Source: an uncultured virus (IMG/VR IMGVR_UViG_3300028173_000008) (lineage: Duplodnaviria; Heunggongvirae; Uroviricota; Caudoviricetes). Taken from it: a stretch of DNA of 64,000 nt. The notes beneath the pieces are model-generated. The model saw only the letters and a list, made by a program, of their open reading frames with translations, searched no databases and was not told where the DNA came from. Numbering within the stretch: the stretch's first letter is position 1; each line of letters opens with the position of its first letter. The stretch is from IMG/VR virus record IMGVR_UViG_3300028173_000008; one strand, 5' to 3'. Positions 1 through 14,103 of the stretch are shown here, in pieces. Both the position numbers and the translations under genes were made by a program.

Positions 1-449
1 TCAGCGATCCCGGACGTGACCCCCGAGGCCCGGTCATCTCGACCGCCTACATGGGCCTCGTCCGCCCCAAGGACGTGACCGTCAAGGCGGACGACGACGC
101 CTCCGACGCCCGCTGGTTCGACGTGGGCGACCTTCCCGACATGGCCTTCGACCACAACAAGATCCTCGCAGAGGGCCTCAAGCGCCTGCGCTCCAAGCTC
201 CGCTGGCAACCCGTTGGCCTCGGCCTGTTGGACGAGGAGTTCACCCTGACCGAGTTGCAGACCGTGTACGAGATTATCCTCGGCCACCAACTCCACAAGG
301 CCAGCTTCCGCCGCAAGGTGGAGAAGCTGGAGGTGCTCATCGACACCGGCAAGACCCGCAAGGCAGGCCACCGGCCCGCCAAGGTCTACCGCTTTGACAC
401 CCCCGCCTACCTCCAACTGGAGGGGCAGGGCATCGAGTTTGAGGTGTGA
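1..449 (+). CDS. nrtR: NrtR-like Nudix/winged-helix regulator (5' partial)
   Basis: DDASDARWF..LP.MAFDH..IL Nudix end, then EEFTLTELQTVYE.ILG..L.KASFRRK..GHRPAKVYRF NrtR wHTH; next to nadD. Confidence 0.85.
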   Translation, partial: SDPGRDPRGPVISTAYMGLVRPKDVTVKADDDASDARWFDVGDLPDMAFDHNKILAEGLKRLRSKLRWQPVGLGLLDEEFTLTELQTVYEIILGHQLHKASFRRKVEKLEVLIDTGKTRKAGHRPAKVYRFDTPAYLQLEGQGIEFEV

Positions 450-450
450 C

Positions 451-690
451 ATGGGAGACGTCTGCTACCAGCCTTCGGGCAGCACCAAGCCCGCCTGCGG
501 CAACAAGGGCAACCAGACCACCTCGGACATGGGGCAGGCCACCTGTCCTGACTGCTACCGTGTGATGCGGGACGGCTACGACCGTACACAGCTACAGATG
601 GTGGACTACCGGGAGTACGGGGCTTCTCCGCCCACGCCCAGTGAGCCAGAGCCCGAATGGAGCTTCTTCAACCTCGACACGGTGCATTAG
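451..690 (+). CDS. small hypothetical protein (CxxC)
   Basis: ORF packed between neighbouring genes. Confidence 0.5.
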   Translation: MGDVCYQPSGSTKPACGNKGNQTTSDMGQATCPDCYRVMRDGYDRTQLQMVDYREYGASPPTPSEPEPEWSFFNLDTVH

Positions 691-960
691 ATGACTGGAC
701 AGGCAGGAACACCCGACGGCCCTGAGTGCGTGTGCTTGAACTGTGAGAGAGGCGTGCTCAGCAAGGTGTTCCTCCACGAGGAGCAGCAAGGGTTCGTCAT
801 CTTCGCCATGGAGGGGGAGACGGACGGCCTCATCGTCCAGCGTGACCCCCGTGACGGCAAGGCCAAGGTCATGATCGGGCCGGTACGCATCGAGACGCCG
901 CCTACCGTGACGGAAGACCCCGACTGCTACGAGATGGGCAGCTACGGAGGCACCGACTGA
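691..960 (+). CDS. hypothetical protein
   Basis: ORF abutting both neighbours. Confidence 0.55.
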   Translation: MTGQAGTPDGPECVCLNCERGVLSKVFLHEEQQGFVIFAMEGETDGLIVQRDPRDGKAKVMIGPVRIETPPTVTEDPDCYEMGSYGGTD

Positions 961-1532
961 TGTGGCGCTACGGGATCTTCGGGGGCGGCTTCAACCCGCC
1001 ACACCTTGCCCATGTCATGACGGCGGCCTACGCCATCGCACAGCGCAACCTCGAGATCCTGTACGTCAGCCCCTGCGGCCACCACGCCTTCGCCAAGAAC
1101 GACAAGCTGATCCCGTGGGAACACCGGGCCGAGATGTGCCGCAGGGCCTTCGAGGGCTTCGGAGGCACCGTCCGCATCCCCAAGTGGGAGGAGAAGGGCG
1201 ACTACACCTATACGGTCGATCTGCTCCGTGACGTAGCCCGCCACGGGGAACCCCACCTCATCATCGGATCGGACAACTGGGATCTCCGCCACCAGTGGAA
1301 GGGGTGGGACGAGATCCTCGACATCCTTGGCGGGGAGGAGCGCATCCTCGTGGTCCCCCGTCCCGATACCAAGATGGCCGAACAGTTGGGGTGGGCGATG
1401 CCCGACGTTTCATCCACCCGCCTCCGGGAATTGATCGCTGCGGGCAATACGGACGAGGTTCTTAAGTGGGTGCCCCCGTCTGTGGTCGCCTACATCAGAC
1501 ACCACGGTCTCTACGGACACACCACACGATAG
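960..1532 (+). CDS. nadD: nicotinate-nucleotide adenylyltransferase
   Basis: GIFGGGFNPPHLAH, IIGSDN..L.QW, DVSST..R, YIR.HGLY. Confidence 0.9.
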   Translation: MWRYGIFGGGFNPPHLAHVMTAAYAIAQRNLEILYVSPCGHHAFAKNDKLIPWEHRAEMCRRAFEGFGGTVRIPKWEEKGDYTYTVDLLRDVARHGEPHLIIGSDNWDLRHQWKGWDEILDILGGEERILVVPRPDTKMAEQLGWAMPDVSSTRLRELIAAGNTDEVLKWVPPSVVAYIRHHGLYGHTTR

Positions 1533-1575
1533 ACCCCCGACATCACACCAGATCCAACTTTTCTTCCCCGAAGTG

Positions 1576-1603
1576 GGCTTAGGCCCCTCCGGTTTCGGGT
1601 TGA
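1576..1603 (+). promoter_or_regulatory. phage bipartite promoter motif GGCTTAG-N14-GGGTTGA
   Basis: one of at least 15 intergenic copies with the same spacing. Confidence 0.7.
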
Positions 1604-1644
1604 GGGAAAGTAACGGGGAAAGTTCCCCGGCCTGAGAAAAACCC

Positions 1645-1673
1645 TTGACAGGGACCCAGGCTGCCGTTATTCC
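1645..1673 (+). promoter_or_regulatory. sigma70-type promoter of + tRNA operon
   Basis: TTGACA-17-TATTCC; context TGAGAAAA..CCTTGACAGG also found at the - operon. Confidence 0.6.
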
Positions 1674-1720
1674 TTTGAGCAAGTGCCGCCGAATGATCGG
1701 CGAGCGGAGGTTTTGGTTCC

Positions 1721-1879
1721 ATGTTGATCACGACGAAAAACGAACGCAGAAAGCGTCAAGCGCACGGGGCAACCCTGGCGTCGAAGCGCGACTCTCTGTT
1801 CGCAGCAGTCGTGAATCACCAGCCTGCCCCCGCCGCCATTGAGGGTTGTGATGACCCGATGGGGGCACCCGGCGAGTAA
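1721..1879 (+). CDS. 52-aa leader peptide (putative attenuator) MLITTKNERRKRQAHGATLASKRDSLFAAVVNHQPAPAAIEGCDDPMGAPGE
   Basis: GGAGG RBS, ATG 1721, TAA 1877-1879, terminator directly downstream. Confidence 0.75.
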   Translation: MLITTKNERRKRQAHGATLASKRDSLFAAVVNHQPAPAAIEGCDDPMGAPGE

Positions 1880-1903
1880 CCAAGCTCCATAAGTGGACTG
1901 GTG

Positions 1904-1938
1904 AAAGCCGGGTAACCGAAAGGTTCCCCGGCTTTTTT
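1904..1938 (+). terminator. intrinsic terminator (attenuator)
   Basis: AAGCCGGG-TAACC-GAAA-GGTT-CCCCGGCTT-TTTT. Confidence 0.85.
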
Positions 1939-1968
1939 GCTTCTTGGGCCTGAGTTGGAACGTAGGGC

Positions 1969-2014
1969 CTACCCGGTAGCACCGGGAGTTGCGGTCTTTG
2001 ACAACTGAATAGTA
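1969..2014 (+). promoter_or_regulatory. rrn-like boxB hairpin + boxA antitermination site
   Basis: hairpin CCCGGT-agc-ACCGGG then GGTCTTTGACAACTGAATAGTA. Confidence 0.75.
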
Positions 2015-2165
2015 CGTGAAAACGCACCAACGAGGGCAGGGCGGGTCTAGCCCACTCGTCCTGCCCTCATTTTCATAATGAACCCGTGCCCCGGTGGGCA
2101 CGGCCAATCCCCTAACGGGGCAAGGTCAAGCAGGCTCAACACCTGCCACGGGTTCCCATGTTCAT

Positions 2166-2242
2166 GGTGGACGTAGCTCAATAGGTAGAGCCCCGGGTTG
2201 TGATCCCGGTGGTTGCGGGTTCGAAGCCCGTCGTTCACCCCA
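2166..2242 (+). tRNA. tRNA-His(GTG)
   Basis: cloverleaf, G-1:C73, CCA. Confidence 0.9.
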
Positions 2243-2255
2243 TGAGAGGGGCTAA

Positions 2256-2337
2256 GGTCTGGTGTCCCGCACGGAGACGTGCAAAGGCAGCGTCGTCTAG
2301 GGTAGGCCACCCAACGATGACGGCGTTGTACTAGACC
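2256..2337 (+). ncRNA. unassigned structured RNA
   Basis: GGTCTGGT/ACTAGACC closing stem; 11-bp GCAGCGTCGTC/GACGGCGTTGT helix. Confidence 0.45.
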
Positions 2338-2410
2338 ACATTATTCCGGCGAAGCTCATCTGGTAGAGCGGGCGGTTGACAACCGAAGGGTCTTGCCTTA
2401 CTTTGAGGGC

Positions 2411-2821
2411 ATGAACAAGAGCCCTAAAACTATCGGCGAGCGCAGTGAAGGCATGGTGCTGGCAGCCCTCTTGAGGGCGGGCAAGGTTGTGTTGCAACCC
2501 TTCGGGGACAACCAACGGTACGACCTTGTGGTGGATGAGGATGGGAAATTCATCCGGGTCCAGTGCAAGACCGCCCGCTTGAAGAACGGCGCTTTGGCCT
2601 TCGATACATGCTCCTCTCAAACCCATCGGGGGAAGGGGAAGCAAGATTACAGGGGGCAAGCGGACTTGTTTGGGGTCTATTCTCCTGACAGGGACGCCGT
2701 GTACCTTGTACCCGTTGAGGATGTCGGGGTTACCCAAGCCCGACTCAGGCTGTCCAAACCTCGTAATGGCCAATCCAAAGGCGTCCGCTTTGCGGCGGAT
2801 TATCTTCTCGATCTGGGGTAG
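2411..2821 (+). CDS. PD-(D/E)XK endonuclease (I-Ssp6803I/PDDEXK_5-like)
   Basis: GERSE..V...L..PFGDNQRYDLVVD..RVQCKT..Y..ADLFGVY. Confidence 0.85.
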   Translation: MNKSPKTIGERSEGMVLAALLRAGKVVLQPFGDNQRYDLVVDEDGKFIRVQCKTARLKNGALAFDTCSSQTHRGKGKQDYRGQADLFGVYSPDRDAVYLVPVEDVGVTQARLRLSKPRNGQSKGVRFAADYLLDLG

Positions 2822-2884
2822 CTCAATAGGTAGAGCGCCGGTCTGTTAAATCGGTTGTTGAGGGTTCAAGTCCCTCCCCCAGAG
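2812..2884 (+). tRNA. tRNA-Asn(GTT), cassette cargo
   Basis: cloverleaf; ORF stop TAG = positions 8-10. Confidence 0.9.
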
Positions 2885-2931
2885 CTACAAGCTCCTCATG
2901 TTGTGGGTTCGAGTCCCACCGCCGGAGCTTG

Positions 2932-3431
2932 AAGGGCTGGCTGTTCCCTTTCGGGGGTTCAGTCTGTGACGGGCCGTATGGGGTCCGTAGGAAACATCGG
3001 AGCAATCCGGTGGAAGGGGAGTCCTTGTCACAGGCCCCCGCCAGTCACCTCTCGGGGTGGTTGGTCCGTCCATGCAAGCCGTAGGTAGCCCGGTCAGGGC
3101 GGGTCGTCCACCAAAGGCGGCTCTAGTCCCGAGTCTGGGGTTGGCCCCACCGACAGGTGGGTGAAGCATGGCCTGTCAGCGATGGCAGTCATGCGAAGGA
3201 TAGGCGGGGACGCCTTGAGCCAACCAATCCAACTGGACGAAGGAGGATTCCCAAGCGGCAGTCGGTCAGTTTGAGGGGTGGGAGCCCTGAAGGCGGTCGG
3301 CATGTAGAGGGGCGAAGGGTGAAATCCCCGGAGTCCTGAAGACAGGGTAAAGCCCGCCGGGGCGAATACCAGAGGACGTGTTGCATTCCCCTCCTCAAAA
3401 GGGAAGGGAACGACTGGCAGGGCACGCCCTT
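2932..3431 (+). ncRNA. large (~500 nt) structured non-coding RNA
   Basis: no credible ORF; AAGGGC/GCCCTT ends pair; UUCG/GNRA-type hairpins; flanked by tRNAs. Confidence 0.55.
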
Positions 3432-3437
3432 ATGACA

Positions 3438-3510
3438 TGCGAATTAGCTCAGTTGGTAGAGCGCATCCTTCGTAGGGATGAGGTCGTTGGTTCAAGTCCA
3501 ACCCTTGCAA
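3438..3510 (+). tRNA. tRNA-Thr(CGT), imperfect acceptor stem
   Basis: good D, anticodon and T arms; 2 acceptor mismatches. Confidence 0.6.
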
Positions 3511-3845
3511 ACAAAGGAAAGACCCTGCCGGTCTGTGTGGTAAGTGACCTAATCCCGTCCCCGCAAGGGAAGGCGGGCCGGTGAAGCCCCCAAGGTGGAG
3601 CCGGTTGGTGGGAAGCTGAAGCGTAGGGGCGGCCACCCCTGCCGGATGTGGAAAGCCGATGCAGCACAGGCGACGAGGGAAACGCCACCCTCCAACAAAG
3701 GCGGTCACGACTGGCTACCGGGGAGACCCGGTGGACACGGGGAGAACTTGGCGGGGGACCGTCAAGGTAATGCCCTGAGAGGCCGGTTATGAAAACGGGT
3801 AGTCTCACCGTTCCTCATTCTCCCCTCCCTTCGGGGCGGGGACTA
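3511..3845 (+). ncRNA. ~330 nt structured non-coding RNA
   Basis: CCCC-GCAA-GGGG, CCGGG-gaga-CCCGG, CCC-TTCG-GGG hairpins; between tRNAs. Confidence 0.45.
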
Positions 3846-3846
3846 T

Positions 3847-3923
3847 CGGAGAGTAGCGCAGCCTGGTAGCGCACCTGGTTCGGGACCAGGGGGTCGGGGG
3901 TTCGAATCCCCCCTCTCCGACCA
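3847..3923 (+). tRNA. tRNA-Pro(CGG)
   Basis: cloverleaf, CCA. Confidence 0.92.
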
Positions 3924-3955
3924 CGACAGAGACAGCCCGGAGAGACGGGCACCAT

Positions 3956-4029
3956 CGGGATGTGGCGCAGTCTGGCAGCGCACTTGGCTGGGGGCCAAGG
4001 GGCCGTCGGTTCGAATCCGACCATCCCGA
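3956..4029 (+). tRNA. tRNA-Pro(GGG)
   Basis: cloverleaf. Confidence 0.9.
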
Positions 4030-4037
4030 CTTTCAAT

Positions 4038-4108
4038 CCTGACCTAGCTCAATGGCAGAGCGCTCGGCTGTGGACCGGGAGATTCGGGTTCAACTCCCGG
4101 GGTTAGGA
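4038..4108 (+). tRNA. tRNA with GTG anticodon (atypical His, U-1:A73)
   Basis: cloverleaf CCTGACC/GGTTAGG. Confidence 0.7.
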
Positions 4109-4190
4109 CGGACAAGGGCTATGGGGTAGAGGCCGAAGTTGGACGAGGCACATTAGACTGGCTATACTCTCCTCATTAGTAGGAGGTAGC

Positions 4191-4811
4191 ATGTACAAGG
4201 AAGCCACGAAGCAAGAGGCCCTCCGCCTTCGCCAACAGCAGCGCCTTTCCCTTCGAGAGATCCAAGCCCAAACAGGGGTCTCTAAAGGAACCCTCTCCAA
4301 GTGGTTGCAGGGGATGCCGTTAGACAGGGAAGAGGTGCGGGCAAAACTCCGCCTCAATGGAACCAGCAAGGGACGAGCAAAAGCTGACCGGGTTGAATCT
4401 GCCTTACACCGCCGTTTCGGTGTTCCCATGAACAGCCACTACAAGGCTAAGATTGCAGAAGCAGCGATCCTTCTTCGGGCTGGCTTGTTGGGGGTGGATA
4501 CCTACCAGAGCCCCTTTGATGGAGACAAGGCCGACTGGGTGTTTGATGTGAAGGGACGCCTCCTTAAGGTGCAGGTGAAATGGGCGGCCACACCAGCCAA
4601 ACATGGGGCACCACAAGTGAAAGTACGATGTGCCGGGGGCCGTTCTGGACTCCGGTGCTACACGGAGGGGGAATTCGACATTCTTGTAGGATATGACCTT
4701 TACACCGACACTGCCTATGTGTGGACGTGGGATGAGGTGAAGGATTTCACCAGCACTGTTTCCTGTTGGGATGAAGCAGAGGAACGCTGGGACAAGATCA
4801 CGGTCTCATAG
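4191..4811 (+). CDS. HTH + PD-(D/E)XK endonuclease
   Basis: LSLREIQAQTGVSKGTLSKWL HTH; IAEAA..PFDGDKADW..KVQVK..Y.EGEFD. Confidence 0.85.
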   Translation: MYKEATKQEALRLRQQQRLSLREIQAQTGVSKGTLSKWLQGMPLDREEVRAKLRLNGTSKGRAKADRVESALHRRFGVPMNSHYKAKIAEAAILLRAGLLGVDTYQSPFDGDKADWVFDVKGRLLKVQVKWAATPAKHGAPQVKVRCAGGRSGLRCYTEGEFDILVGYDLYTDTAYVWTWDEVKDFTSTVSCWDEAEERWDKITVS

Positions 4812-4879
4812 GGGAGTCAGGAGTCCCCACCTGCCTGTCACGCAGGAGATCCCGGGTTCAAATCCCGGTGGGACCGCCA
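4802..4879 (+). tRNA. tRNA-Asp(GTC), cassette cargo
   Basis: cloverleaf, CCA; ORF stop TAG = positions 8-10. Confidence 0.9.
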
Positions 4880-5050
4880 GAGGAAGCGGGTTCGAGTCCC
4901 GTCTATCCCGCCAATCGCCGGGGGTGAAACCCGGAGGAACACAGTGGAAGCAGCAGGCTCCCCCTCGGGGGAGGCCGTGCAAGCGTAACTCCTGCCGTGG
5001 AAGCTGTGGAAAACCGGGCGAATCCCCACTTGGGACCTTGTGGACACGCA

Positions 5051-5138
5051 GGCTGGGTAGCTCCAATCGGCAGAGCGCTGGGCAACGCTTGCACGGCTTT
5101 GGGCCCAGAGGTAGGGGGTTCGAGTCCTTCCCTGGGTA
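5051..5138 (+). pseudogene. tRNA-like RNA with ~19-21 nt anticodon loop
   Basis: D and T arms intact, CTGGGC/GCCCAG stem, weak acceptor. Confidence 0.55.
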
Positions 5139-5179
5139 CACAAGAAGCGGGATGTCCAAGTTCCAACGGCGATTTTCAT

Positions 5180-5252
5180 GGGGGTGAGGTCTGCTGGGCG
5201 GACGCTGGCTTGTCAGGTCAGAACGGGGAGGGTTCGATTCCCTTCACTCCCG
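5180..5252 (+). tRNA. tRNA-Asp(GTC)
   Basis: cloverleaf. Confidence 0.75.
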
Positions 5253-5256
5253 CTTT

Positions 5257-5329
5257 GGGTCCGTAGTGTTAATGTAGCATCCCTGGCTCTTAACCAGGCG
5301 GGTGGCGGGTTCAAGTCCCCCCGGACTCA
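5257..5329 (+). tRNA. tRNA-Lys(CTT)
   Basis: cloverleaf, atypical D loop. Confidence 0.7.
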
Positions 5330-5344
5330 CTGAAGTGTTTTCAT

Positions 5345-5417
5345 CCCTCCGTGGCGCAATTGGTAGCGCAAACGGCTCTTAACCGTGAGGTTGAAGGTTC
5401 GATTCCTTCCGGGGGGA
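5345..5417 (+). tRNA. tRNA-Lys(CTT)
   Basis: cloverleaf. Confidence 0.88.
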
Positions 5418-5435
5418 CTAGCGTTTGTACTTTGT

Positions 5436-5512
5436 GACCCCGTCGTCTAGTTGGCTAGGACACCAGACTCTCAATCTGGAGATCGCCGGTTCAAACCCGG
5501 TCGGGGTTACCA
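5436..5512 (+). tRNA. tRNA-Glu(CTC)
   Basis: cloverleaf, CCA. Confidence 0.9.
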
Positions 5513-5513
5513 T

Positions 5514-5587
5514 CCTCCCGTAGCTCAGTAGGTAGAGCGGCGGCCCGATAAGCCGTGACAGCGAAGGTTCAATTCCTTTCGGGAGGA
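5514..5587 (+). tRNA. tRNA-Ile(GAT)
   Basis: cloverleaf (C33). Confidence 0.85.
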
Positions 5588-5614
5588 CTAGCAGAGGACT
5601 GTGGTGCTGGTTCA

Positions 5615-5687
5615 GCATAGATAGCTCAATTGGTTGAGCATCGGTCATTCAAACCGACGGTTACAGGTTCGATCCCTGTTCGTTTGC
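5615..5687 (+). pseudogene. degenerate tRNA (TTC loop)
   Basis: D, anticodon and T arms present; acceptor poorly paired; A33. Confidence 0.5.
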
Positions 5688-5721
5688 AACAGCCCGACAC
5701 CCGACCTTCCTCTGCTTCCCT

Positions 5722-5841
5722 CGAACAGTAGCTCAGTGTTGATGTACCCCCGCCAAGTTGCCGGTTGATGAAGCGGAAGGGCATCGATAGGGAGAGCGCC
5801 GGGACACTCGGAGGCCGCTGGTTCAAACCCAGCCTGTTCGA
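5722..5841 (+). ncRNA. tRNA-like RNA with ~53-nt D-loop hairpin insert and no anticodon loop
   Basis: CGAACAG/CTGTTCG acceptor, GCTC/GAGC D stem, CCGGG-ACA-CTCGG, GCTGG-TTCAAAC-CCAGC. Confidence 0.75.
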
Positions 5842-5845
5842 CTTT

Positions 5846-5917
5846 GCGGGCGTAGCTCAGTGGTAGAGCATCGGGTTGCCAATCCGAAGGTCGTGGGTTC
5901 GAATCCCATCGCCCGCT
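5846..5917 (+). tRNA. tRNA-Gly(GCC)
   Basis: cloverleaf. Confidence 0.92.
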
Positions 5918-5921
5918 CTAT

Positions 5922-5995
5922 GGTGTGGTCTTCTAATTGGCTAGGAAATCGGCCTTTCAAGCCGGGGAATGCGGGTTCGAATCCCGTCCACACTA
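5922..5995 (+). tRNA. tRNA-Glu(TTC)
   Basis: cloverleaf. Confidence 0.9.
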
Positions 5996-6168
5996 CAAGA
6001 AGTCCGGTAGCCACCGGACGCGGCCGGAGACACCCCCGGTCGTCAGTCAGGTTGGCATCTGACGAACAGGGTAGCCGATCCCCGGTAATGGGGCGTCGTC
6101 AGGGAGGCGAAAGTAGGGCAACCGAAGGACGGTCTGAAATACATCGTCCGGGTCTTACCCCTGATCAT

Positions 6169-6244
6169 GGGGCCTTAGCTCACTTGGGAGAGCGTCGGGA
6201 TGGCATTCCGAAGGTAGCGGGTTCGATCCCCGCAGGCTCCACCA
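6169..6244 (+). tRNA. tRNA-Ala(GGC)
   Basis: cloverleaf, G3:U70, CCA. Confidence 0.92.
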
Positions 6245-6273
6245 GGGCTTAGTTGCAGATCTATCTGCGTTGA

Positions 6274-6347
6274 TGGGGCGTCGTCCAAAGGCAGGACCCT
6301 GGGTTTTGGTCCCAGTGATGAGGGTTCGAATCCTTCCGCCTCAGCCA
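6274..6347 (+). tRNA. tRNA-Gln(TTG)
   Basis: cloverleaf, CCA. Confidence 0.9.
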
Positions 6348-6361
6348 TTCAAGGAGGTGTC

Positions 6362-7162
6362 ATGAGCAAGATAGTAAAAGGCACCTCCCGGAGCGGTGTA
6401 GGAACTACGTTGGTGGTTCCGCAGCACCGGCTGGTGTTCGACATGGGGGCTCCCCTGGTGGAGTCCTTGGGCGTCCGTAAGGTGTTCATCACCCACGGGC
6501 ACATGGATCACGCAGGGGCTCTGGTGTTCCACGCCAGCACACGGGGAATGATGGGAATGGGGCCGCCCCTGTTCCACGTCCCGGCCTGGATGGAAGCCGA
6601 CCTTCGGGTGATACTGAAGGCCGCCGCCCGCCTCAACGGTGGGGGAGTCCAGTTCGACATGGTCCCCATGGAAGCGGGCAAGAGTCACGATCTGGGAGGG
6701 CCTCGCAGAGTGGTGCCCTTCTACACCGACCACCGGCTACCGTGCCTCGGCTACAAGGTCTACCAGACCCGAAACAAGCTCCGGGATGAGTTCATAGGAC
6801 TTCCCGGAGAGGAGATCGGGCGGCTTCGGAAGGGTGGAACGGAAGTCACCCGTGAGGTAGAAGCCTTGGCACACACGCACGTAGGGGACAGCCGGGTGAC
6901 CGTGCTGGACAAACACCCCGAGGTGTTCCAGTCAGATGTGCTGGTGCTGGAGTGTACGTTCGTGGGCGACTACTCCTTGGAGGAGACCCACAGGCGGGGA
7001 CACACGCACCTGTCCGAACTGGCGGAACGTGCGGAACTGTTCAAGGACGTGAAGGCCGTTGTCCTGACACACTTCTCGATGCGACACAGCGAGAAGGAGG
7101 TCAAGGCGGAGGTCGCCAAGCTCCCCGAGTCCCTTCGGGACAAGATCCACCTCGTTTTCTAG
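6362..7162 (+). CDS. rnz: ribonuclease Z (MBL fold)
   Basis: FITHGHMDH, GDS, LECTF, RGHTH, LTHFSMRH, short exosite. Confidence 0.85.
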   Translation: MSKIVKGTSRSGVGTTLVVPQHRLVFDMGAPLVESLGVRKVFITHGHMDHAGALVFHASTRGMMGMGPPLFHVPAWMEADLRVILKAAARLNGGGVQFDMVPMEAGKSHDLGGPRRVVPFYTDHRLPCLGYKVYQTRNKLRDEFIGLPGEEIGRLRKGGTEVTREVEALAHTHVGDSRVTVLDKHPEVFQSDVLVLECTFVGDYSLEETHRRGHTHLSELAERAELFKDVKAVVLTHFSMRHSEKEVKAEVAKLPESLRDKIHLVF

Positions 7163-7246
7163 CCCCCTCTCGGGGGCATCATTGGGGCATAGCTCAATTG
7201 GTAGAGTACCGTTGAACTTTGTGCGCTTTACCCTTACACTAGAAGC

Positions 7247-7828
7247 ATGGGACGAAAGAGCCACATCTGGGACACACCCCCGGAACGCTTCCGCCAACTG
7301 GTACACACCCACACCACATGGAAAGGGCTCGCATTAGCCCTTGGGATGTCGATCTGTGGGGGGACATTCAAGACCATCCGTAAAAGGATCCAGCAAGATG
7401 GGTTGGACGATCATCATTTGCGAGAGGGGGCCTCAAAACGAGGTGGCCTTTTGGCCGCTAAGAAACAGGAGCAGCCCCTTTCAGAGATCATGGTGAAAGA
7501 TTCTTCCTACTCACGGTACCACCTAAAGGCCCGTCTACTGCGAGACAGGGTGTTGGAAAACAAGTGTGCCATGTGCGGTCTCGATCCTGTTTGGGAAGGA
7601 GATCCCCTCGTGATGGTTCTTGACCACATAAACGGGGAACCCCAAGACCACCGGGCAGGGAATCTGAGGTTGGTCTGCCCCAACTGCAACTCACAGCTTC
7701 CAACCTTTGCAGGTCGGAAAACGAAAAAGGGCGAGGTTCTTTGTGTGGACTGCGGGACACCCATCCACACAAGAAGTACCAGATGTCGTTCATGTAGCGG
7801 CAGGCATCGTTATTTTACTGGGGAGTAA
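7247..7828 (+). CDS. HNH endonuclease
   Basis: CAMCG..LDHING..D.R..NLRLVCPNCNSQ. Confidence 0.9.
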   Translation: MGRKSHIWDTPPERFRQLVHTHTTWKGLALALGMSICGGTFKTIRKRIQQDGLDDHHLREGASKRGGLLAAKKQEQPLSEIMVKDSSYSRYHLKARLLRDRVLENKCAMCGLDPVWEGDPLVMVLDHINGEPQDHRAGNLRLVCPNCNSQLPTFAGRKTKKGEVLCVDCGTPIHTRSTRCRSCSGRHRYFTGE

Positions 7829-7891
7829 CTCAACTGGCAGAGTGCCGTCCTCTGAAGGCGGATGTTGTGGGTTCGAGTCCCACCTCCCCAG
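7819..7891 (+). tRNA. tRNA-Gln(CTG), cassette cargo
   Basis: cloverleaf; ORF stop TAA = positions 8-10. Confidence 0.9.
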
Positions 7892-7962
7892 CCCATAGGT
7901 TGAAGGTTCAAGTCCTTCTGCCCCAGCTATGGCGGGACGCACAGGCAGTGCAGGCCGTCTAA

Positions 7963-8035
7963 CGCAGTGTAGCTCAACAGGTAGAGCGCTGGTCTCATAA
8001 GCCGGAGGTTCCCGGTTCAATTCCGGGCACTGCGA
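7963..8035 (+). tRNA. tRNA-Met(CAT)
   Basis: cloverleaf. Confidence 0.85.
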
Positions 8036-8050
8036 CTACAGCGGTACTAG

Positions 8051-8124
8051 GGCGACGTAGCCAAGTTGGTTAAAGCACTGGTCTGCAAAACCAGAGATCC
8101 CCGGTTCGAATCCGGGCGTCGCCT
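8051..8124 (+). tRNA. tRNA-Cys(GCA)
   Basis: cloverleaf, U73. Confidence 0.9.
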
Positions 8125-8197
8125 CTTTTCGGACGGTAGCTCAGTGGTAGAGCTTCGGTAGCTCTCCTATCAGGAGTCTCATGGTAGGAGGTGGGCT

Positions 8198-8545
8198 GTG
8201 ACAACCATCGTGAAATGTGAGCAGTGCGGCAGGGAGTACGTCCCGGACAGGAAAAAGGGACACCGTGGAACCCTTTGCAACTCTTGTGTGGTCAACACCA
8301 GGAGAGCAAGCGTAAAGGAAAAGGCAGTCTCCTACAAAGGAGGGGCGTGCGCCATCTGCGGTTACGACCGGTGTGCGAGAGCCTTGGGGTTCCACCATAA
8401 GGACCCTGCCAAGAAGGATTTTCCTCTTGGGGCCAACTACACGAGGTCGTGGGACAAACTGAAGGTGGAGTTGGATAAGTGCATCCTCCTCTGCGCCAAC
8501 TGTCACGCTGAAGTTCATGATGGGATGGTTGAACTCGGGGGGTAG
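8198..8545 (+). CDS. HNH endonuclease
   Basis: YKGGACAICGY..ALGFHHKDP..ELDKCILLCANCHAEVH. Confidence 0.9.
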   Translation: MTTIVKCEQCGREYVPDRKKGHRGTLCNSCVVNTRRASVKEKAVSYKGGACAICGYDRCARALGFHHKDPAKKDFPLGANYTRSWDKLKVELDKCILLCANCHAEVHDGMVELGG

Positions 8546-8608
8546 CTCAGTGGCTAGAGCGAACGGCTGATAACCGTTAGGGCGAGGGTTCGAGTCCCTC
8601 TCTCCCGA
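8536..8608 (+). tRNA. tRNA-Ile(GAT), cassette cargo
   Basis: cloverleaf; ORF stop TAG = positions 8-10. Confidence 0.9.
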
Positions 8609-8752
8609 CTTTTACTACCGTGGGGCCGGAGGTTCGAATCCTCCTCGTCCGACCAGTAGGGAAAGGTGGCGGTCTGAGAGCCTGCCGGGTTCTGCAAGGC
8701 CCAATGGTTCAACGTCTGTTGCAGCAGGCCCCGTGCGCCGCCCTGCGTTCAT

Positions 8753-8822
8753 GCCCTCGCCCGTGGATCGGGGCTTTGGTCTTCTAAACCGGAGGTCGAG
8801 GGTTCGATTCCTTCCGGGGGCG
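8753..8822 (+). tRNA. tRNA-Arg(TCT), shortened D arm
   Basis: acceptor, anticodon and T arms canonical. Confidence 0.7.
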
Positions 8823-8881
8823 CTAGTTTGTCTATGGGCAGGGGATGGTAGAGTGGATCGACTCCACGAGGAGATACCGTC

Positions 8882-10054
8882 ATGGGCTACAACGTCCCCG
8901 AACCTTACGCCTCGCTCCTTGCCACGTACCCCGACGTAGCGAACGTCAAGTACGTGTCCCCACCGGATGCTAACCATCTGGAGGGAACGGGGGACGGCTC
9001 ATTGGTCAACCCGTACAGGGGCATCCAGACGGCCATCGATGCTTTTCCGCCCACAGAGATGCCTCCGCCTGACCCGGCGGACATGGGCCCAGAGGATCTG
9101 GTCAACCTGTTCCGGTTCATCGTCGTCAATTCGGGTGTGTACGACGAGAGCCCCATTATCACAGAGGCAGGGCTCTGGTCCTTTCAATCAGCAGGGCAGG
9201 TCCTGCTGATCTCCCCTGTGGCTTTCGCTTACCTGTGGGATCCTGAGCACGAGCCGCCCCCGTCCATTGACGACATGCGGTTCTTCCACCTGAACCCGGA
9301 TGAAACCAAGCTTGACGCTTGGGGCATGTTCATCTTGGACATTCAGCCCCTCTACGGTGCCCCGAAAGACAAGATGATCGGCGGCATCGGCAGGAACGGC
9401 AGCACCGGGGGTCTGCAGATGTGGACCCTTATGGGCGGGATCGTCTACGAGGTGGAAGCACCCCTCGGTGGCTGGACGCACACCCCGTCGCCGTCCATTA
9501 GCTTGAAAGATGTCTACGGCCTGGTACTCGTCCCTGGAGAGAACGGGGATTGGGAAGCCGACATCAACATCGACTGTGACCGAGTCTCGTTCAACTACTT
9601 CGAAGTCCTGGGGCTGGAGAAGTACGACGTCGAGATCCTCAACTCCGCCTTCAGTGGCCTTGAGCAGTACTCTGGACCTGGTGCCCCTATCTACACGCAG
9701 ACCTGCCGGTTCTGGGCCAGCAACTGCAACATCACGGGCGACGTGTTCGTGGCAGACGCCGACATCGTGTTCGACCACGTTTCCATGAGCGGTGGAGACC
9801 TGATTTTCAGGACCTACTGGTCCATCCTGGACTGCAACCTGGACGTCAACGAGTGGGAACACACACAGTCCCCGTCGGGATCGGTCATCATCAACACCTA
9901 CTTCGACGTGAACTCGTGGGGTGCGGCCCTTCCCCTGAACGCCCTGAACGTCTGCGCCACCACCTGTGCGATGAGCAGTTCGGCCCTGTCCAGCTTGCCC
10001 GTCCCACATAGCAACTACGCATCAGTCACGAACAGCGTCGTGATCCCCCCGTAA
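8882..10054 (+). CDS. acidic hypothetical protein (possibly beta-helix/virion)
   Basis: 390-aa ORF with GGAG RBS; GDGSLVNPY..IQ.AIDA motif. Confidence 0.7.
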   Translation: MGYNVPEPYASLLATYPDVANVKYVSPPDANHLEGTGDGSLVNPYRGIQTAIDAFPPTEMPPPDPADMGPEDLVNLFRFIVVNSGVYDESPIITEAGLWSFQSAGQVLLISPVAFAYLWDPEHEPPPSIDDMRFFHLNPDETKLDAWGMFILDIQPLYGAPKDKMIGGIGRNGSTGGLQMWTLMGGIVYEVEAPLGGWTHTPSPSISLKDVYGLVLVPGENGDWEADINIDCDRVSFNYFEVLGLEKYDVEILNSAFSGLEQYSGPGAPIYTQTCRFWASNCNITGDVFVADADIVFDHVSMSGGDLIFRTYWSILDCNLDVNEWEHTQSPSGSVIINTYFDVNSWGAALPLNALNVCATTCAMSSSALSSLPVPHSNYASVTNSVVIPP

Positions 10055-10057
10055 CCT

Positions 10058-10130
10058 GCCCCAGTAGCTCAGTGGATAGAGCATCGGTCTCCTAAACCGA
10101 GGGCCGCAGGTTCGATTCCTGCTTGGGGCA
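10058..10130 (+). tRNA. tRNA-Arg(CCT)
   Basis: cloverleaf. Confidence 0.92.
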
Positions 10131-10164
10131 CTCCCTTCAACAGCACCGCAACAAGGAGAACACC

Positions 10165-10218
10165 ATGGTACTTCGTCTCAAACAGCCGCCGACCCCCATT
10201 CGTTTACTGGGCCGGTAG
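10165..10218 (+). CDS. 17-aa mini-ORF MVLRLKQPPTPIRLLGR ending inside tRNA-Lys
   Basis: AAGGAG RBS; TAG = tRNA positions 8-10. Confidence 0.45.
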   Translation: MVLRLKQPPTPIRLLGR

Positions 10219-10284
10219 CTCAACTGGATAGTCAGCAAGCGGCTTTTAACCGCTAGGTTCCGGGTTCAAGTCCCGGTCGGCCCA
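10209..10284 (+). tRNA. tRNA-Lys(TTT)
   Basis: cloverleaf. Confidence 0.88.
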
Positions 10285-10289
10285 CTATT

Positions 10290-10363
10290 GCGGACGTAGC
10301 CAAGAGGTAAGGCATCGGGCTTCCACCCCGTGAGCGCCGGTTCGATTCCGGTCGTCCGCTCCA
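10290..10363 (+). tRNA. tRNA-Gly(TCC)
   Basis: cloverleaf, CCA. Confidence 0.9.
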
Positions 10364-10404
10364 CCAACAGGGCTTAGGTAGTTCCTCTATTGCGTAGACA
10401 CCCA

Positions 10405-10772
10405 TGGGTAGGATGTCAGCCTCGGTGAAGCTGGGTACGCAGTGGAGGGGCACAAAACGACGCCTGCACCGCCCGTGAGATAGGCCCAAACGGGGAACCG
10501 TCAACCGGGGAGGGGGTGGAAGTCCTCTTGACCCGCCCGGAAGGGTCCTGCGTTGAGCCGTCATCTTGAGGGCGGCCTTGAAGGGCAGCGTAGGTACACC
10601 CCCTGAAGGACGCCCTTTGGCTGGTGCTTGGACTGGCCCCTGTGGATGAGGGTTTGTATCAACCAAGCTGGAAGCGGAGTACTCGTCCCCATTGTTGAAT
10701 CCCACCTTCGGGTGCGGTACTGGACGAGCCGGAAGTACCCCATGGCACGGCGTACTTCCGGCTGTGGGCGTG
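10405..10772 (+). ncRNA. ~370 nt structured non-coding RNA
   Basis: directly after a GGCTTAG promoter; 12-bp AGCCGGAAGTAC/GTACTTCCGGCT helix; no credible ORF. Confidence 0.5.
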
Positions 10773-10773
10773 A

Positions 10774-10845
10774 GGGCGTATAACTCAGCGGAAGAGTGCC
10801 GTCTTGACAAGGCGGAAGTCCCTGGTTCAATCCCAGGTACGCCCA
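10774..10845 (+). tRNA. tRNA-Val(GAC)
   Basis: cloverleaf. Confidence 0.9.
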
Positions 10846-10862
10846 CTGAATCGGAGGGCTAG

Positions 10863-11048
10863 GTGACGAACAAGGACAAGTGGTTCGCAACCTGTATGGT
10901 GTTGATGCTTGTGACAGGCTTCGGTCTTGTGGGGCTTGGCCTCGACTCAACGCTGGCATCGATCTTTGAGGTGGCCGCAGCCGCCATCTGGCTCTTTGGA
11001 GTTCCGAAAGTCAGCCGTAGAGCACACCAGTACATCTACGGCAGGTAG
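10863..11048 (+). CDS. small membrane protein
   Basis: GGAGG RBS, two hydrophobic segments. Confidence 0.6.
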   Translation: MTNKDKWFATCMVLMLVTGFGLVGLGLDSTLASIFEVAAAAIWLFGVPKVSRRAHQYIYGR

Positions 11049-11054
11049 TTTTGG

Positions 11055-11126
11055 CGCGGGGTAGGGAAGTGGCATCCTCCTTGGCTCATAACCAAGGGAT
11101 CGGCGGTTCAAGTCCGCCCCCCGCAA
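11055..11126 (+). tRNA. tRNA-fMet(CAT)
   Basis: CGCGGGG start, C1:A72 mismatch. Confidence 0.8.
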
Positions 11127-11273
11127 CCTCTCGGGCAATCTGACTCGGCCCGTAAGCCCGCCCCACGTCCCCGTCAGGGTGACGAGCACCCGAAAGGGTA
11201 GGGCAACAGGAGCAGACCGTGGGAAGACGCTTTGTACAGCGTCGGAATGCGTCCCGGAGGGACGCCCCACCGT

Positions 11274-11345
11274 GCGGGTGTAGTTCAGGGGTAGAACGTC
11301 AGCTTCCCAAGCTGGATGTCGTGGGTTCGAATCCCATCACCCGCT
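11274..11345 (+). tRNA. tRNA-Gly(CCC)
   Basis: cloverleaf. Confidence 0.92.
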
Positions 11346-11349
11346 CTAT

Positions 11350-11422
11350 GGGGCCTTAGCTCACTTGGGAGAGCGCCGCTTTTGCAAGGCGGAGGTAGCC
11401 GGTTCGATCCCGGCAGGCTCCA
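11350..11422 (+). tRNA. tRNA-Ala(TGC)
   Basis: cloverleaf, G3:U70. Confidence 0.92.
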
Positions 11423-11425
11423 CTA

Positions 11426-11480
11426 TGGGGAGGGCGGGGTGGTCAGGCCCGAAAGGGAGCAGCCATCCTGACCCTACCCA
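11426..11480 (+). ncRNA. ffs: minimal SRP (4.5S) RNA, helix 8 domain
   Basis: GGTCAGGCCC-GAAA-GGGAGCAGCC matches helix-8 GGUCAGGUCCGGAAGGAAGCAGCC; closed by TGGG..CCCA. Confidence 0.85.
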
Positions 11481-11534
11481 CCAGGCTTAGCCTCCCGTTC
11501 ACCTGTGTTGAAGAGGTGGACGACGGAGGACGAC

Positions 11535-11981
11535 ATGAGCGTTACATTTTGGTGCCCCGAAGCTCCCCGAGAGGCCATCGAGACCCCTTGCTGGGGCGAG
11601 TGCGACGAAACCTGCCCCATGTGTCACGGCACCAACGTGACCACGGAACAGGTCAGCCCGCACGAGATGAACCTCGCCAACGCCAACGCCTACAACATCC
11701 TCCTCGCCTTGGGTGTCCAGAGTGACGAATCCATGTGCGGCGGGTGGGAGACCCCCGAGGACATCCGCACCATCAGGGCGGCGATCCTCAAGGCCCGCAA
11801 CGTGACAGGCCGCAGGGAAGGGGCACACCGAGACGCCGAATCCTACGGCGGGCCGGGAACTGGAACCTGCCGGGTCGTTTCGCAGGGCTACACCGACGAG
11901 CAGGTACTCGACCGGCTGACCCGGTTGGACAAGCTCCTCGCCTACGCTTTGGAGAACAGTCACCGGGTGGTTTGGGGATGA
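11535..11981 (+). CDS. hypothetical protein (Zn ribbon)
   Basis: GGAGG RBS, CxxC motifs. Confidence 0.7.
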   Translation: MSVTFWCPEAPREAIETPCWGECDETCPMCHGTNVTTEQVSPHEMNLANANAYNILLALGVQSDESMCGGWETPEDIRTIRAAILKARNVTGRREGAHRDAESYGGPGTGTCRVVSQGYTDEQVLDRLTRLDKLLAYALENSHRVVWG

Positions 11982-12556
11982 GTGCTCACCGTGAGCGTGT
12001 GAAAATGCTCAAGCGGGTCAACGCCCACCAGCAAGTCAACGACCCCTTCTGGTTGTCCGGCTACACCGACGGAAGCCACCATCCCGACACAGGGAAGGGC
12101 GGCGTGGGCCTGTGGGTACGGGACAACGAGACCCGAATCCTCAAGGCTATACCGACCCCTCCGTGGGCTGTGAACTCCAACCTCGTGGAACTGTTCGGGG
12201 TCTGCGCCGCCATTGAGACGGCCCTGACGGAACTCACACAGGAAGCCAACATCCTCGTCATCAAGACGGACAGCCAGAGCACGGCCAACTGGTTCGGCTG
12301 GCAGGGCAACAAGTCCGTACCGAAGCAGCCTGAAGCCCTCGAGATGATGCAGCACGTCCTAGAGCTTGCCACCGACCGCCGAGTGAAGGTGGTCGTCAAG
12401 TGGGTGAAGGGACACCAAGGCACGGGCAGCGTCGTGGGCTACTTGAACAACCGGGTCGACAAGATGGCCCGTGATGCACGACTGAAAGGTGTACCCTCTC
12501 GCTGGTCCTGCCGGGTCAACGAGGAACGCAAGCAAGGGCCTGTAGCTCAACGGTAG
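11978..12556 (+). CDS. rnhA: ribonuclease HI
   Basis: YTDGS, NSNLVEL, KTDSQ, KWVKGH, NNRVDKMA. Confidence 0.85.
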   Translation: MSAHRERVKMLKRVNAHQQVNDPFWLSGYTDGSHHPDTGKGGVGLWVRDNETRILKAIPTPPWAVNSNLVELFGVCAAIETALTELTQEANILVIKTDSQSTANWFGWQGNKSVPKQPEALEMMQHVLELATDRRVKVVVKWVKGHQGTGSVVGYLNNRVDKMARDARLKGVPSRWSCRVNEERKQGPVAQR

Positions 12557-12608
12557 AGCCTCCCGCTCATAACGGGACGGTCGACGGGTTCGACTCCCTC
12601 CGGGCCCA
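12536..12608 (+). tRNA. tRNA(CAT), probably Ile2
   Basis: GGGCCTG acceptor typical of Ile2; overlaps rnhA end. Confidence 0.75.
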
Positions 12609-12658
12609 CTAGCCCCTAAACAGCAAGCAGCAGGGTAGGATAAGGCAGGAGGTGCCTC

Positions 12659-12898
12659 ATGCCGGATCTACCCTACGTGATGCTCACTGGACTCATCCTC
12701 ATGCTGGTCGGTGTTCCCCTCTGGATGTACCGCTCAGAGAAGAAGAAGGTGGAGGCCGGGTGTTGCGGGAAGCCGTGGATCTCCTACTGCCGTGACTCAC
12801 AGGGCGGCATCGGCTTGAACTGTCAGGAGTGCGACAACGGCACTTGGGTATCCTACTACCGCAAGGGCTTCGTTGAGGGCGAACAGCAACCATTCTAG
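12659..12898 (+). CDS. small membrane-anchored protein
   Basis: GGAGG RBS, N-terminal TM. Confidence 0.6.
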   Translation: MPDLPYVMLTGLILMLVGVPLWMYRSEKKKVEAGCCGKPWISYCRDSQGGIGLNCQECDNGTWVSYYRKGFVEGEQQPF

Positions 12899-12968
12899 GC
12901 TCGTAGCTCAGTGGGAGAGCGCCTGCTTCACACGCAGGAAGTCCCCGGTTCAAAACCGGGCGGGCCTA
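12897..12968 (+). tRNA. tRNA-Val(CAC)
   Basis: cloverleaf. Confidence 0.9.
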
Positions 12969-12986
12969 CTTTGAAGGAGGGCTAAC

Positions 12987-13514: not shown

Positions 13515-13532
13515 CAACGCACAAGGCTCCAA

Positions 13533-13608
13533 GGGCGAGTAGCGCAGTGGAAGTAGCACCGGCTTTACAAGCCGTAGGTCGTGGGTTCAATCCCCACCTC
13601 GCCCACCA
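13533..13608 (+). tRNA. tRNA-Val(TAC)
   Basis: cloverleaf, CCA. Confidence 0.85.
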
Positions 13609-13647
13609 TTCAGGCTTAGCCGGACGCCCGTCCGTGTAGAGAACCTC

Positions 13648-13953: not shown

Positions 13954-13969
13954 ACACCAATCCAAACAT

Positions 13970-14043: not shown

Positions 14044-14103
14044 CTTGTGCGCCCGTAGCTTTATGGTTTCTCCTCCGGTATTATCCGGGCAACAGGAGGA
14101 ACC

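Follow-up and report, generated by a model that had tools for sequence, protein, structure and literature searches.

The 64,000-nucleotide stretch of DNA analysed here (hereafter the window) is part of a 106,830-base record of an uncultured virus (IMG/VR IMGVR_UViG_3300028173_000008), and region 1631-2068 of its plus strand is, judging by the sequence, best explained as the regulatory leader of a tRNA operon in a huge marine phage. We consider it reasonably likely that this leader acts as a ribosome-mediated attenuator that gates entry into a tRNA operon protected by a boxA antitermination site, and that the likely signal is the slow decoding of codons served by the operon's own tRNAs. In other words, the phage probably makes more of the array tRNAs when ribosomes read the matching codons slowly. 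Since CheckV rates the record as ~20% complete, the phage genome would measure ~500 kb; DNA of the window has been detected in marine and seawater metagenomes.

In the proposed mechanism, a strong rRNA-like promoter (an A-tract followed by TTGACA) would start an RNA in which a translated open reading frame (ORF) of 52 codons comes first. The last codons of this ORF (region 2) would be able to pair with a downstream segment (region 3), which could alternatively pair with the segment that follows it (region 4) to form an intrinsic terminator. A ribosome keeping pace would reach the stop codon and cover region 2, the terminator would form and transcription would end at about position 1938; a ribosome lagging on a slowly read ORF codon would permit the pairing of regions 2 and 3, and the polymerase would read on. 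It would then transcribe boxA, presumably be made termination-resistant by host Nus factors, and proceed through the 12.6-kb array. Ribosome position would thus decide the fold of the leader, and tRNA supply would be what the leader senses. Because the codons of the ORF are mostly read by tRNAs of the array, and a twin leader uses those of the other array, a shortage of the tRNA species encoded downstream is the likely signal and would render tRNA synthesis demand-driven.

The leader module and its competing helices

The module consists of the following parts.

1631-1673, plus strand: candidate promoter, with an A-rich tract (gagaaaaaccc), a -35 hexamer TTGACA (1645-1650), a 17-nt spacer and a candidate -10 hexamer TATTCC (1668-1673)
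1706-1710, plus strand: Shine-Dalgarno site GGAGG, 10 nt 5' of the ATG at 1721
1721-1879, plus strand: predicted leader ORF of 52 sense codons plus TAA (1877-1879), MLITTKNERRKRQAHGATLASKRDSLFAAVVNHQPAPAAIEGCDDPMGAPGE
1861-1873, plus strand: region 2, the 5' strand of the putative antiterminator, within the last five ORF codons; core ACCCGGC (1867-1873), with the stop one codon later
1906-1933, plus strand: predicted terminator hairpin, AGCCGGGTAACC / GAAA / GGTTCCCCGGCT, 11 pairs and one T.C mismatch, -19.3 kcal/mol
1906-1938, plus strand, segments of the terminator: 5' arm 1906-1917 (region 3), GAAA loop 1918-1921, 3' arm 1922-1933 (region 4), T6 1933-1938
1995-2012, plus strand: boxA-type element TCTTTGACAACTGAATAG, inside a conserved block (1993-2017)
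2032-2068, plus strand: second hairpin of 15 pairs followed by ATTTTCAT, between boxA and the first tRNA

From these sequence elements we infer promoter activity at 1631-1673, translation of the ORF and termination at the 1906-1938 hairpin. The predicted promoter would be a dedicated one, lying between an upstream gene for an NMN/NaMN adenylyltransferase (NMNAT) and the leader ORF; a consensus promoter scan left it out because its -10 hexamer lacks the final T, and a simple terminator scan missed the hairpin because of the T.C mismatch. An earlier note, made from the DNA letters alone, had read this stretch as a leader-peptide attenuator, an interpretation that is supported by the sequence comparisons described below. 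The GGAGG site, the 52-codon ORF and the terminator on which it relied are all in place; the gap between stop codon and terminator, given there as 24 nt, measures 26 nt to the first paired base of the hairpin. Its account of the peptide also holds: the last 25 residues, AAVVNHQPAPAAIEGCDDPMGAPGE, comprise 12 different amino acids, with Leu, Ser, Thr, Phe, Tyr and Trp all missing, and a script check found Lys (AAA, AAG) and Arg (CGC, AGA, CGT) codons earlier in the ORF, with CGG absent. A database peptide of 64 residues (P0045), known from one 1.9-kb contig, corresponds to the window leader with Tyr in place of the TAA and ends within the terminator 5' arm; it is either a variant or a gene-calling artefact.

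Taken singly, the features of the window are of limited weight. The complementarity claimed in the earlier note, between ACCCGGC (1867-1873) and GCCGGGT (1907-1913) in the terminator 5' arm, is present as 7 bp. The window has 23 copies of the heptamer, both strands counted, where 18.3 are expected. A given 30-nt stretch would contain one with odds of ~0.4%, rising to a few percent if any 7-mer of the arm is allowed; the heptamer match by itself is suggestive only. Among the long ORFs of the record, 45 of 33,528 segments of 25 residues are free of Leu, Ser, Thr, Phe, Tyr and Trp, and over the whole plus leader ORF the codons of the minus-strand array number 7 of 51, a marginal depletion (p = 0.035). 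These features exceed chance only when taken together with the relatives and with the minus-strand twin.

Megablast and blastn searches of GenBank phages returned no relative, the sole match being one tRNA, nor did locus searches using one protein at a time, NMNAT or the leader peptide, confirm any. The alignment of NMNAT homologues led to three syntenic huge-phage contigs that carry the module with a tRNA array downstream: L012 (381 kb), L013 (436 kb, with terminal repeats) and L014 (188 kb), whose NMNAT proteins share 36-42% identity with that of the window. In addition, one metagenome scan for the terminator plus the conserved block, limited to the plus type, yielded 27 loci (16 distinct), among them four new relatives (six loci: L197, L201/L203, L204, L206/L210), each with His, Asn, Pro and Asp tRNAs downstream. 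Six further loci have the same sequence here as the window, L012 or L014, and 15 (nine distinct sequences) were unrelated and were dropped. The plus-type set therefore comprises eight sequences: the window, L012, L013, L014, L197, L201, L204 and L206. A profile search of databases also retrieved 15 peptides of the leader family, eight of which are new variants.

The order of parts is kept in all eight: promoter, Shine-Dalgarno site, ORF of 46-58 codons, hairpin, boxA, and a tRNA array beginning with His/Asn/Pro/Asp. A TTGACA preceded by an A-tract lies upstream of all eight plus-type leaders, and of all three leaders of the minus type described below, as the sole conserved promoter-like element. 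The Shine-Dalgarno sites of the relatives are of the GGAG or GAGGA type, 5-11 nt 5' of the start, which in L197 and L201 is an internal ATG. The frame, the length, the Shine-Dalgarno site and the position of the stop relative to the antiterminator helix are kept throughout, with the stop codon 0-1 codon after region 2 and the hairpin 26-34 nt behind the stop. The peptides themselves are poorly conserved overall (23-30% identity), and a C-terminal motif, NG.DP..VPG, is found in most members. Directly after the hairpin, 4-9 T follow the GC-rich stem in the window, L013, L206 and L204. In L013 an ORF (7363-7760) with Cys/His motifs recognised by eye, resembling an HNH endonuclease, is inserted between the leader terminator (T9) and boxA.

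The pairing noticed in the window is conserved and covaries in the eight leaders. The ORF end resembles the 3' arm of the terminator and can pair with the 5' arm in every one of them, over 9-11 bp in the relatives; the resulting helix and the terminator cannot form at once, and a ribosome standing at the stop codon can reach the helix. This duplex has a predicted energy of -18.4 kcal/mol in the window and of -16.6 to -25.1 kcal/mol over the set, compared with -16.5 to -23.2 kcal/mol for the terminator hairpins. The pairing of ORF ends with their own arms is matched or beaten by 56 of 40,320 permutations, a count that is inflated because two of the arms are identical. Covariation was tested on a MAFFT alignment of the eight leaders (A3), in which the 5' arm of L206 is misaligned by one column and was scored as unpaired in both helices. 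For the antiterminator, 85.9% of cells are paired versus 22-55% with a slid partner, and the covariation score of 0.195 was reached by one of 500 shuffles; pair 24-78 occurs as three pair types (GC in five sequences, UA in two, AU in one). For the terminator, 84.9% of cells are paired, the score is 0.199 (again one of 500 shuffles) and four pairs show compensatory changes. VPG is replaced in L206 (ASSG), L204 (VLGM) and L201 (VPRF), and the RNA pairing is still kept there, in L204 by means of G.U pairs; since the pairing survives the loss of VPG, it seems to be the RNA helix more than the peptide that is under selection in these three. In folding predictions with a ribosome mask over the stop codon, the terminator forms in all eight; in support of the switch, when region 4 is forbidden from pairing, the helix between regions 2 and 3 belongs to the minimum-energy fold in seven of eight.

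boxA, the twin module and the codons of the two arrays

The conserved 25-mer behind the terminator contains a TTGACA and was considered as a second promoter. This was rejected, as it has no -10 hexamer at the right spacing; moreover, the copy in L004 stops 3 nt short of a tRNA, and the motif is the boxA of bacterial rRNA operons. The 18-mer within it, TCTTTGACAAYTGAATAG, matches at least 123 bacterial loci from many phyla. Rfam annotation of 20 of these loci placed it on the sense strand upstream of rRNA in 11 (two before 16S, and nine before 23S, in the spacer); of the others, three lie near the pemK RNA motif and six had no RNA match. Its core agrees at 10 of 13 positions with the E. coli rrn boxA, ugcucuuuaacaa, as quoted in an excerpt of PMC2724277. 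According to the excerpted text of PMC4807359, boxA is a NusB/NusE site upstream of the 16S and 23S genes that counters Rho-dependent termination. Identified by its position in rRNA operons, element 1995-2012 is in all appearance an rRNA-type boxA and not a promoter, and would presumably serve as a NusB/NusE loading site for processive antitermination. A copy precedes the minus array of the window as well, as found by self-comparison, and in the phages G001 and G002 the motif occurs exactly twice each, one copy ahead of each array. The L004 instance (2501-2519, minus strand) is a boxA 19-mer ending 3 nt before tRNA-Lys, inside the tRNA array of an unrelated 318-kb phage of lower GC content; its placement is identical in L005 and L007.

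This assignment bears on where the array transcripts begin. In L062 only ~21 nt separate the T-run of the terminator from boxA, which leaves no room for a separate promoter after the terminator, and boxA works as RNA, so that the promoter must lie upstream. As boxA is no promoter and the sole conserved promoter-like element lies upstream, the array transcripts most likely begin at the TTGACA/A-tract element and must pass the hairpin. Two RNA-library contigs of 151 nt from one run, 1982-2132 (boxA and the second hairpin) and 2112-2262, together extend from boxA to tRNA-His. The contigs of three RNA libraries (X18-X20) cover nothing of 1200-1981; contigs cannot show absence, and no conclusion on termination is drawn from them. 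Directly 3' of each boxA of the window there is a long GC-rich hairpin with a T-rich run (2032-2068, plus strand; 44240-44205, minus strand), and similar hairpins follow boxA in L012, L013 and L059. They could be terminators that are passed solely by boxA-modified polymerase, or processing stems. Further TTGACA sites occur within both arrays (13793-13812, plus strand; 41143, minus strand); the one at 13796 reads TTTGACAAC, which resembles the start of a boxA and is possibly an internal boxA or a promoter.

Both self-comparison and inspection of the sequence reveal that the same succession of parts heads the second tRNA array of the window, on the opposite strand.

44249-44512, minus strand: twin module
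44512-44484, minus strand: predicted promoter elements downstream of an A-tract, -35 TTGACA (44512-44507) and, 17 nt later, -10 TAGCGT (44489-44484)
44459-44361, minus strand: predicted leader ORF of 32 codons, MQTLFTTFSLRTHVSLTGWSYLSTSAPEGVTG, preceded by the Shine-Dalgarno site AGGAGA
44336-44305, minus strand: predicted terminator, hairpin plus T5
44266-44249, minus strand: boxA, within a block (44268-44244) that matches the plus block 1993-2017 at 92%

After the minus boxA come the further hairpin and the first tRNA. The minus leader is rich in Leu, Ser, Thr, Phe, Tyr and Trp. Three leaders of this type are available (window, L059 and L062). Searches for more of them by alignment of flanking proteins returned only window-like contigs and G001, a profile search returned only the window's own peptide, and a DNA pattern returned seven loci, three already known and four without tRNA or ORF that were taken as chance matches.

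The two arrays that these modules precede differ in content.

2167-14793, plus strand: array of 34 tRNA genes (His, Asn, Pro, Asp, Lys, Glu, Ile, Gly, Ala, Gln, Met, Cys, Arg, Val and one Thr-CGU), 12.6 kb long, with interspersed endonuclease ORFs and a GOLLD RNA
39697-44202, minus strand: array of 17 tRNA genes (Leu, Ser, Thr, Phe, Tyr, Arg-CCG)
43119-43191, minus strand: tRNA-Trp, anticodon CCA read by eye; missed by ARAGORN, matched by the Rfam tRNA-Sec model (40-41 bits)
43818-43902, minus strand: Tyr-like tRNA gene with a long arm, anticodon GUA read by eye; likewise missed by ARAGORN and matched by the tRNA-Sec model (40-41 bits)

The three phages with both arrays known (window, G001 and G002) share this sorting, with His, Asn, Pro, Asp, Lys, Glu, Ile, Met, Ala, Val, Gly, Gln, Cys and most Arg tRNAs in one array and Leu, Ser, Thr, Phe, Tyr, Trp and Arg-CCG in the other. 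The exceptions in the plus array are Thr-CGU in the window, Ser-UGA in G001 and Leu-GAG in G002; the exception in the other array is Glu-CUC in G002. With codon readability assigned by simple wobble rules, the leaders divide as follows into codons read only by the plus or only by the minus array.

Window: plus leader 42 plus-only and 7 minus-only (51 codons); minus leader 10 and 16; Fisher p = 4.7e-5
G001: plus leader 32 and 6; minus leader 9 and 25; Fisher p = 9.6e-7
G002: plus leader 39 and 9; minus leader 8 and 20; Fisher p = 7.5e-6

The earlier suggestion that the two peptides divide the genetic code as the two operons do is therefore borne out in all three phages. The leaders also touch most of the anticodon species of their own array. 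For the minus leaders the counts are 15/15, 14/14 and 17/17, with p < 5e-5, 4.5e-4 and 5e-5 against a random-codon null; for the plus leaders they are 26/28, 18/20 and 28/29 (p = 0.055, 0.063 and 0.020). Synonymous resampling of the minus leaders gives p = 0.037, 0.083 and 0.115, which is suggestive only. All 14 'plus' amino acids are present in six of the eight plus-type leaders, with a chance of 0.10-0.22 per leader. Across these eight, Leu, Ser, Thr, Phe, Tyr and Trp make up 46 of 195 N-terminal residues versus 15 of 200 in the last 25 (Fisher p = 1.1e-5), and this scarcity near the ORF end fits a putative control zone close to the switch. A strict absence of the six amino acids from the last 25 residues, as described for the window in the earlier note, is found in two of the eight (window and L197).

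A more far-reaching interpretation, which we put forward tentatively, is that of two complementary 'codon-census' leaders that sample nearly every tRNA species encoded by the phage, each gating its own half of a near-complete tRNA set by a terminator/antiterminator switch placed before a boxA borrowed from rRNA operons. The phage would in this way measure decoding speed codon by codon, and switch on replacement tRNAs only when the host pool fails, e.g., upon host shut-off or a tRNA-cleaving defence.

Alternative explanations

Several observations weigh against an attenuator that responds to the tRNAs of its own array. With regard to the codons, synonymous resampling of the plus leaders gives p = 0.34, 0.034 and 0.37, so that tuning at the codon level is not supported for two of the three, and the composition bias of the plus leader is by itself marginal (p = 0.035, with p = 0.055 for coverage). 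Seven codons of the window ORF belong to the other array; the earlier note had acknowledged as many codons that the plus array does not serve, and they are exactly TTG, ACC, CTG, TCG, TCT, CTG and TTC, all in the first part of the ORF. In six relatives, 1-4 of the last 25 residues belong to the other array. Tandem repeats of a single codon, as seen in classical attenuators, are absent from the plus leader. With regard to the RNA, the naked full-length leader folds into the terminator in seven of eight cases, and a ribosome mask ending 12 codons before the stop makes the antiterminator the minimum-energy fold in only two of eight (L204 and L013); because of the latter, the attenuator model needs kinetic, co-transcriptional folding, as classical attenuators do. 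No conserved anti-antiterminator (a region 1 sequestering region 2 in a 1:2 helix) was found among the eight leaders; in predicted pre-terminator folds region 2 is partly paired upstream, with partners that differ between sequences. The U-tract is short in four of the eight plus-type leaders (T followed by CTCACG in L012; TT followed by CG in L014, L197 and L201), so the hairpin may terminate poorly there. The conserved NG.DP..VPG motif could reflect a function of the peptide. Finally, the plus-type sequences are related by descent, and for this reason the p-values overstate their independence.

The ORF might be an ordinary gene for a small phage protein with its own promoter and terminator, the array being reached by incidental leak-through and the composition reflecting the job of the peptide. 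The amino-acid-level conservation of NG.DP..VPG in most members and the presence of a complete predicted promoter, Shine-Dalgarno site and terminator are what such a gene would show. However, we regard it as unlikely, given that the RNA pairing survives the loss of the motif in L206, L204 and L201, that ORF end and terminator 5' arm covary, that the stop always falls 0-1 codon behind the helix (8/8), and that in three phages the other array is headed by a twin of opposite composition. In L062, moreover, boxA follows and leaves no space for another promoter, and neither the plus nor the minus leader peptide matches any Pfam family. The hairpin, for its part, might be a boxB-like or processing stem of an rRNA-type antitermination leader instead of a regulated terminator, with the array transcribed constitutively from the upstream promoter. 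The excerpts of PMC10250234 and PMC2724277 give the order of rRNA leaders as boxB, boxA and boxC, the promoter is rRNA-like in its A-tract and TTGACA, and the U-tract is weak in 4/8. To this reading we nevertheless give little credence, as 4-9 T stand right after a GC-rich stem in the window, L013, L206 and L204, and as the covarying second helix, the fixed stop position and the codon match would go unexplained.

It is also quite improbable that the leader is an untranslated RNA whose helix switch is operated by a protein, by a small molecule or by a directly bound tRNA, the ORF being incidental. In its favour, the two competing helices are the best-supported feature of all and the peptides are poorly conserved (23-30% identity); yet all eight retain an open frame of 46-58 codons together with its Shine-Dalgarno site and stop position, despite ~25% identity, and a switch of this kind gives the match between codons and array no role. 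An Rfam search at E <= 1 over 1-16000 of the window found no T-box and no other known cis-regulatory leader family. As for a chance ORF beside the terminator of an upstream NMNAT operon, GC-rich DNA does yield spurious ORFs (69 of at least 30 amino acids overlap 1-5000) and a heptamer complement by itself is not rare, but the whole module is conserved in eight sequences and in the twin, a dedicated promoter is predicted between the NMNAT gene and the ORF, and the ~25% peptide identity excludes that the relatives are assembly copies of one sequence; we consider this very hard to credit. The small protein, the untranslated switch and the constitutive rRNA-like leader each explain fewer of the conserved features than the ribosome-mediated attenuator does.

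Neighbouring features and known systems

Several other features lie in or near the two arrays.

960-1532: NMNAT gene, upstream of the leader module
37299-37664, minus strand: tmRNA, after the Leu/Ser/Thr array, with a counterpart in the 436-kb relative (L218, 6089-6449)
3371-3811, plus strand: GOLLD RNA (Rfam RF02032, 154.4 bits versus a gathering score of 150)
3438-3510: tRNA-Thr(CGU), embedded in the GOLLD RNA
2393-2821 and 4191-4811, plus strand: PD-(D/E)XK endonuclease ORFs between tRNA genes (Pfam PDDEXK_5, E = 7e-37 and 1.5e-11)
2342-2385, 2886-2928 and 4880-4915: apparent half tRNA genes, recognised by eye, flanking the endonuclease ORFs
11412-11499, plus strand: match to the bacterial small signal recognition particle RNA, adjoining tRNA-Ala, below threshold (33.6 bits versus a gathering score of 40)

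An NrtR-like gene is likewise found upstream of the leader module. The half tRNA genes are possibly tRNAs disrupted by introns or homing endonucleases. Over the GOLLD region, two marine metatranscriptome runs contain one contig of ~850 nt each (2953-3797 and 2972-3812) at a depth of 22-26, the latter flanked by adapter sequence at 2972; these contigs suggest an abundant GOLLD RNA of ~840 nt. The window differs from the genome sequence of the record at 30 positions, clustered at 1589-1656, 4879-4912, 6949-7039, 30931, 43762-43773 and 61945-61951. The cluster at 43762-43773 corresponds to the anticodon loop of a tRNA-Leu (43723-43807), which reads CAA in the window and UAA in the near-identical contigs L010 and L011; the minus leader holds one TTA codon.

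To our knowledge, next to nothing is known about the regulation of tRNA arrays; the logic of feedback from decoding speed is known for amino-acid synthesis. If the attenuator reading is true, an attenuator before tRNA genes would let decoding speed feed back directly on tRNA supply and would constitute a natural multi-codon sensor of translation. It would also be an example of a phage combining attenuation with the rRNA antitermination system of its host, and would offer a testable reason for the sorting of tRNAs into two arrays. As the module is short and self-contained, it is amenable to cell-free testing. Why phages carry tRNA genes is debated, and the excerpted parts of PMC10264068 and PMC11555353 propose codon compensation and the replacement of tRNAs cut by host defences. 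In full-text literature searches, the parts of papers returned included none that joins tRNA arrays or operons with leader-peptide attenuation.

The closest known systems are the multivalent leader-peptide attenuators of enterobacterial amino-acid operons, such as the trpL, hisL, thrL, ilvGMEDA and ilvBN leaders; published abstracts deal with pheL as well as trpL. Like these, the phage module has a short ORF, predicted here to be translated, between promoter and structural genes, and a terminator 5' arm that can alternatively pair with a segment at the ORF end; a ribosome at the stop would mask this segment and slow decoding would free it. Unlike them, the phage module would regulate tRNA genes and not biosynthetic enzymes, its leader samples 12-14 amino acids (26/28 anticodon species) with no tandem codon run, its terminator is followed by a boxA antitermination site, the phage leaders yielded no conserved 1:2 hairpin, and the system is phage-borne and comes in two complementary copies. 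The pheST operon of E. coli, with its pheM leader, is a case of a translation-apparatus operon controlled by attenuation. In both pheST and, as proposed, the phage, a leader peptide senses tRNA charging and controls genes of the translation machinery, but the target of pheST control is a synthetase, and its leader uses a run of Phe codons to sense a single amino acid, while the phage output is tRNAs and its leader would sense many amino acids.

The other half of the module recalls the rRNA operons, where antitermination at boxA is carried out by a complex of NusB, NusE, NusA, NusG and SuhB. As in the boxA leaders described in the excerpts of PMC4807359 and PMC2724277, the phage 18-mer (1995-2012) is identical to motifs upstream of bacterial 16S and 23S rRNA, and boxA stands downstream of a strong (here predicted) promoter, where a long untranslated stable-RNA operon begins. 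On the other hand, rRNA leaders have neither a translated ORF nor an intrinsic terminator before boxA; in the phage, boxA lies behind the terminator, so that only polymerases escaping it would be modified. Finally, the module shares with the T-box riboswitch a choice between terminator and antiterminator that would report the status of tRNAs, the difference being that the T-box binds uncharged tRNA directly and involves no translation, whereas the sensor in the phage is presumably a ribosome moving along the leader ORF.

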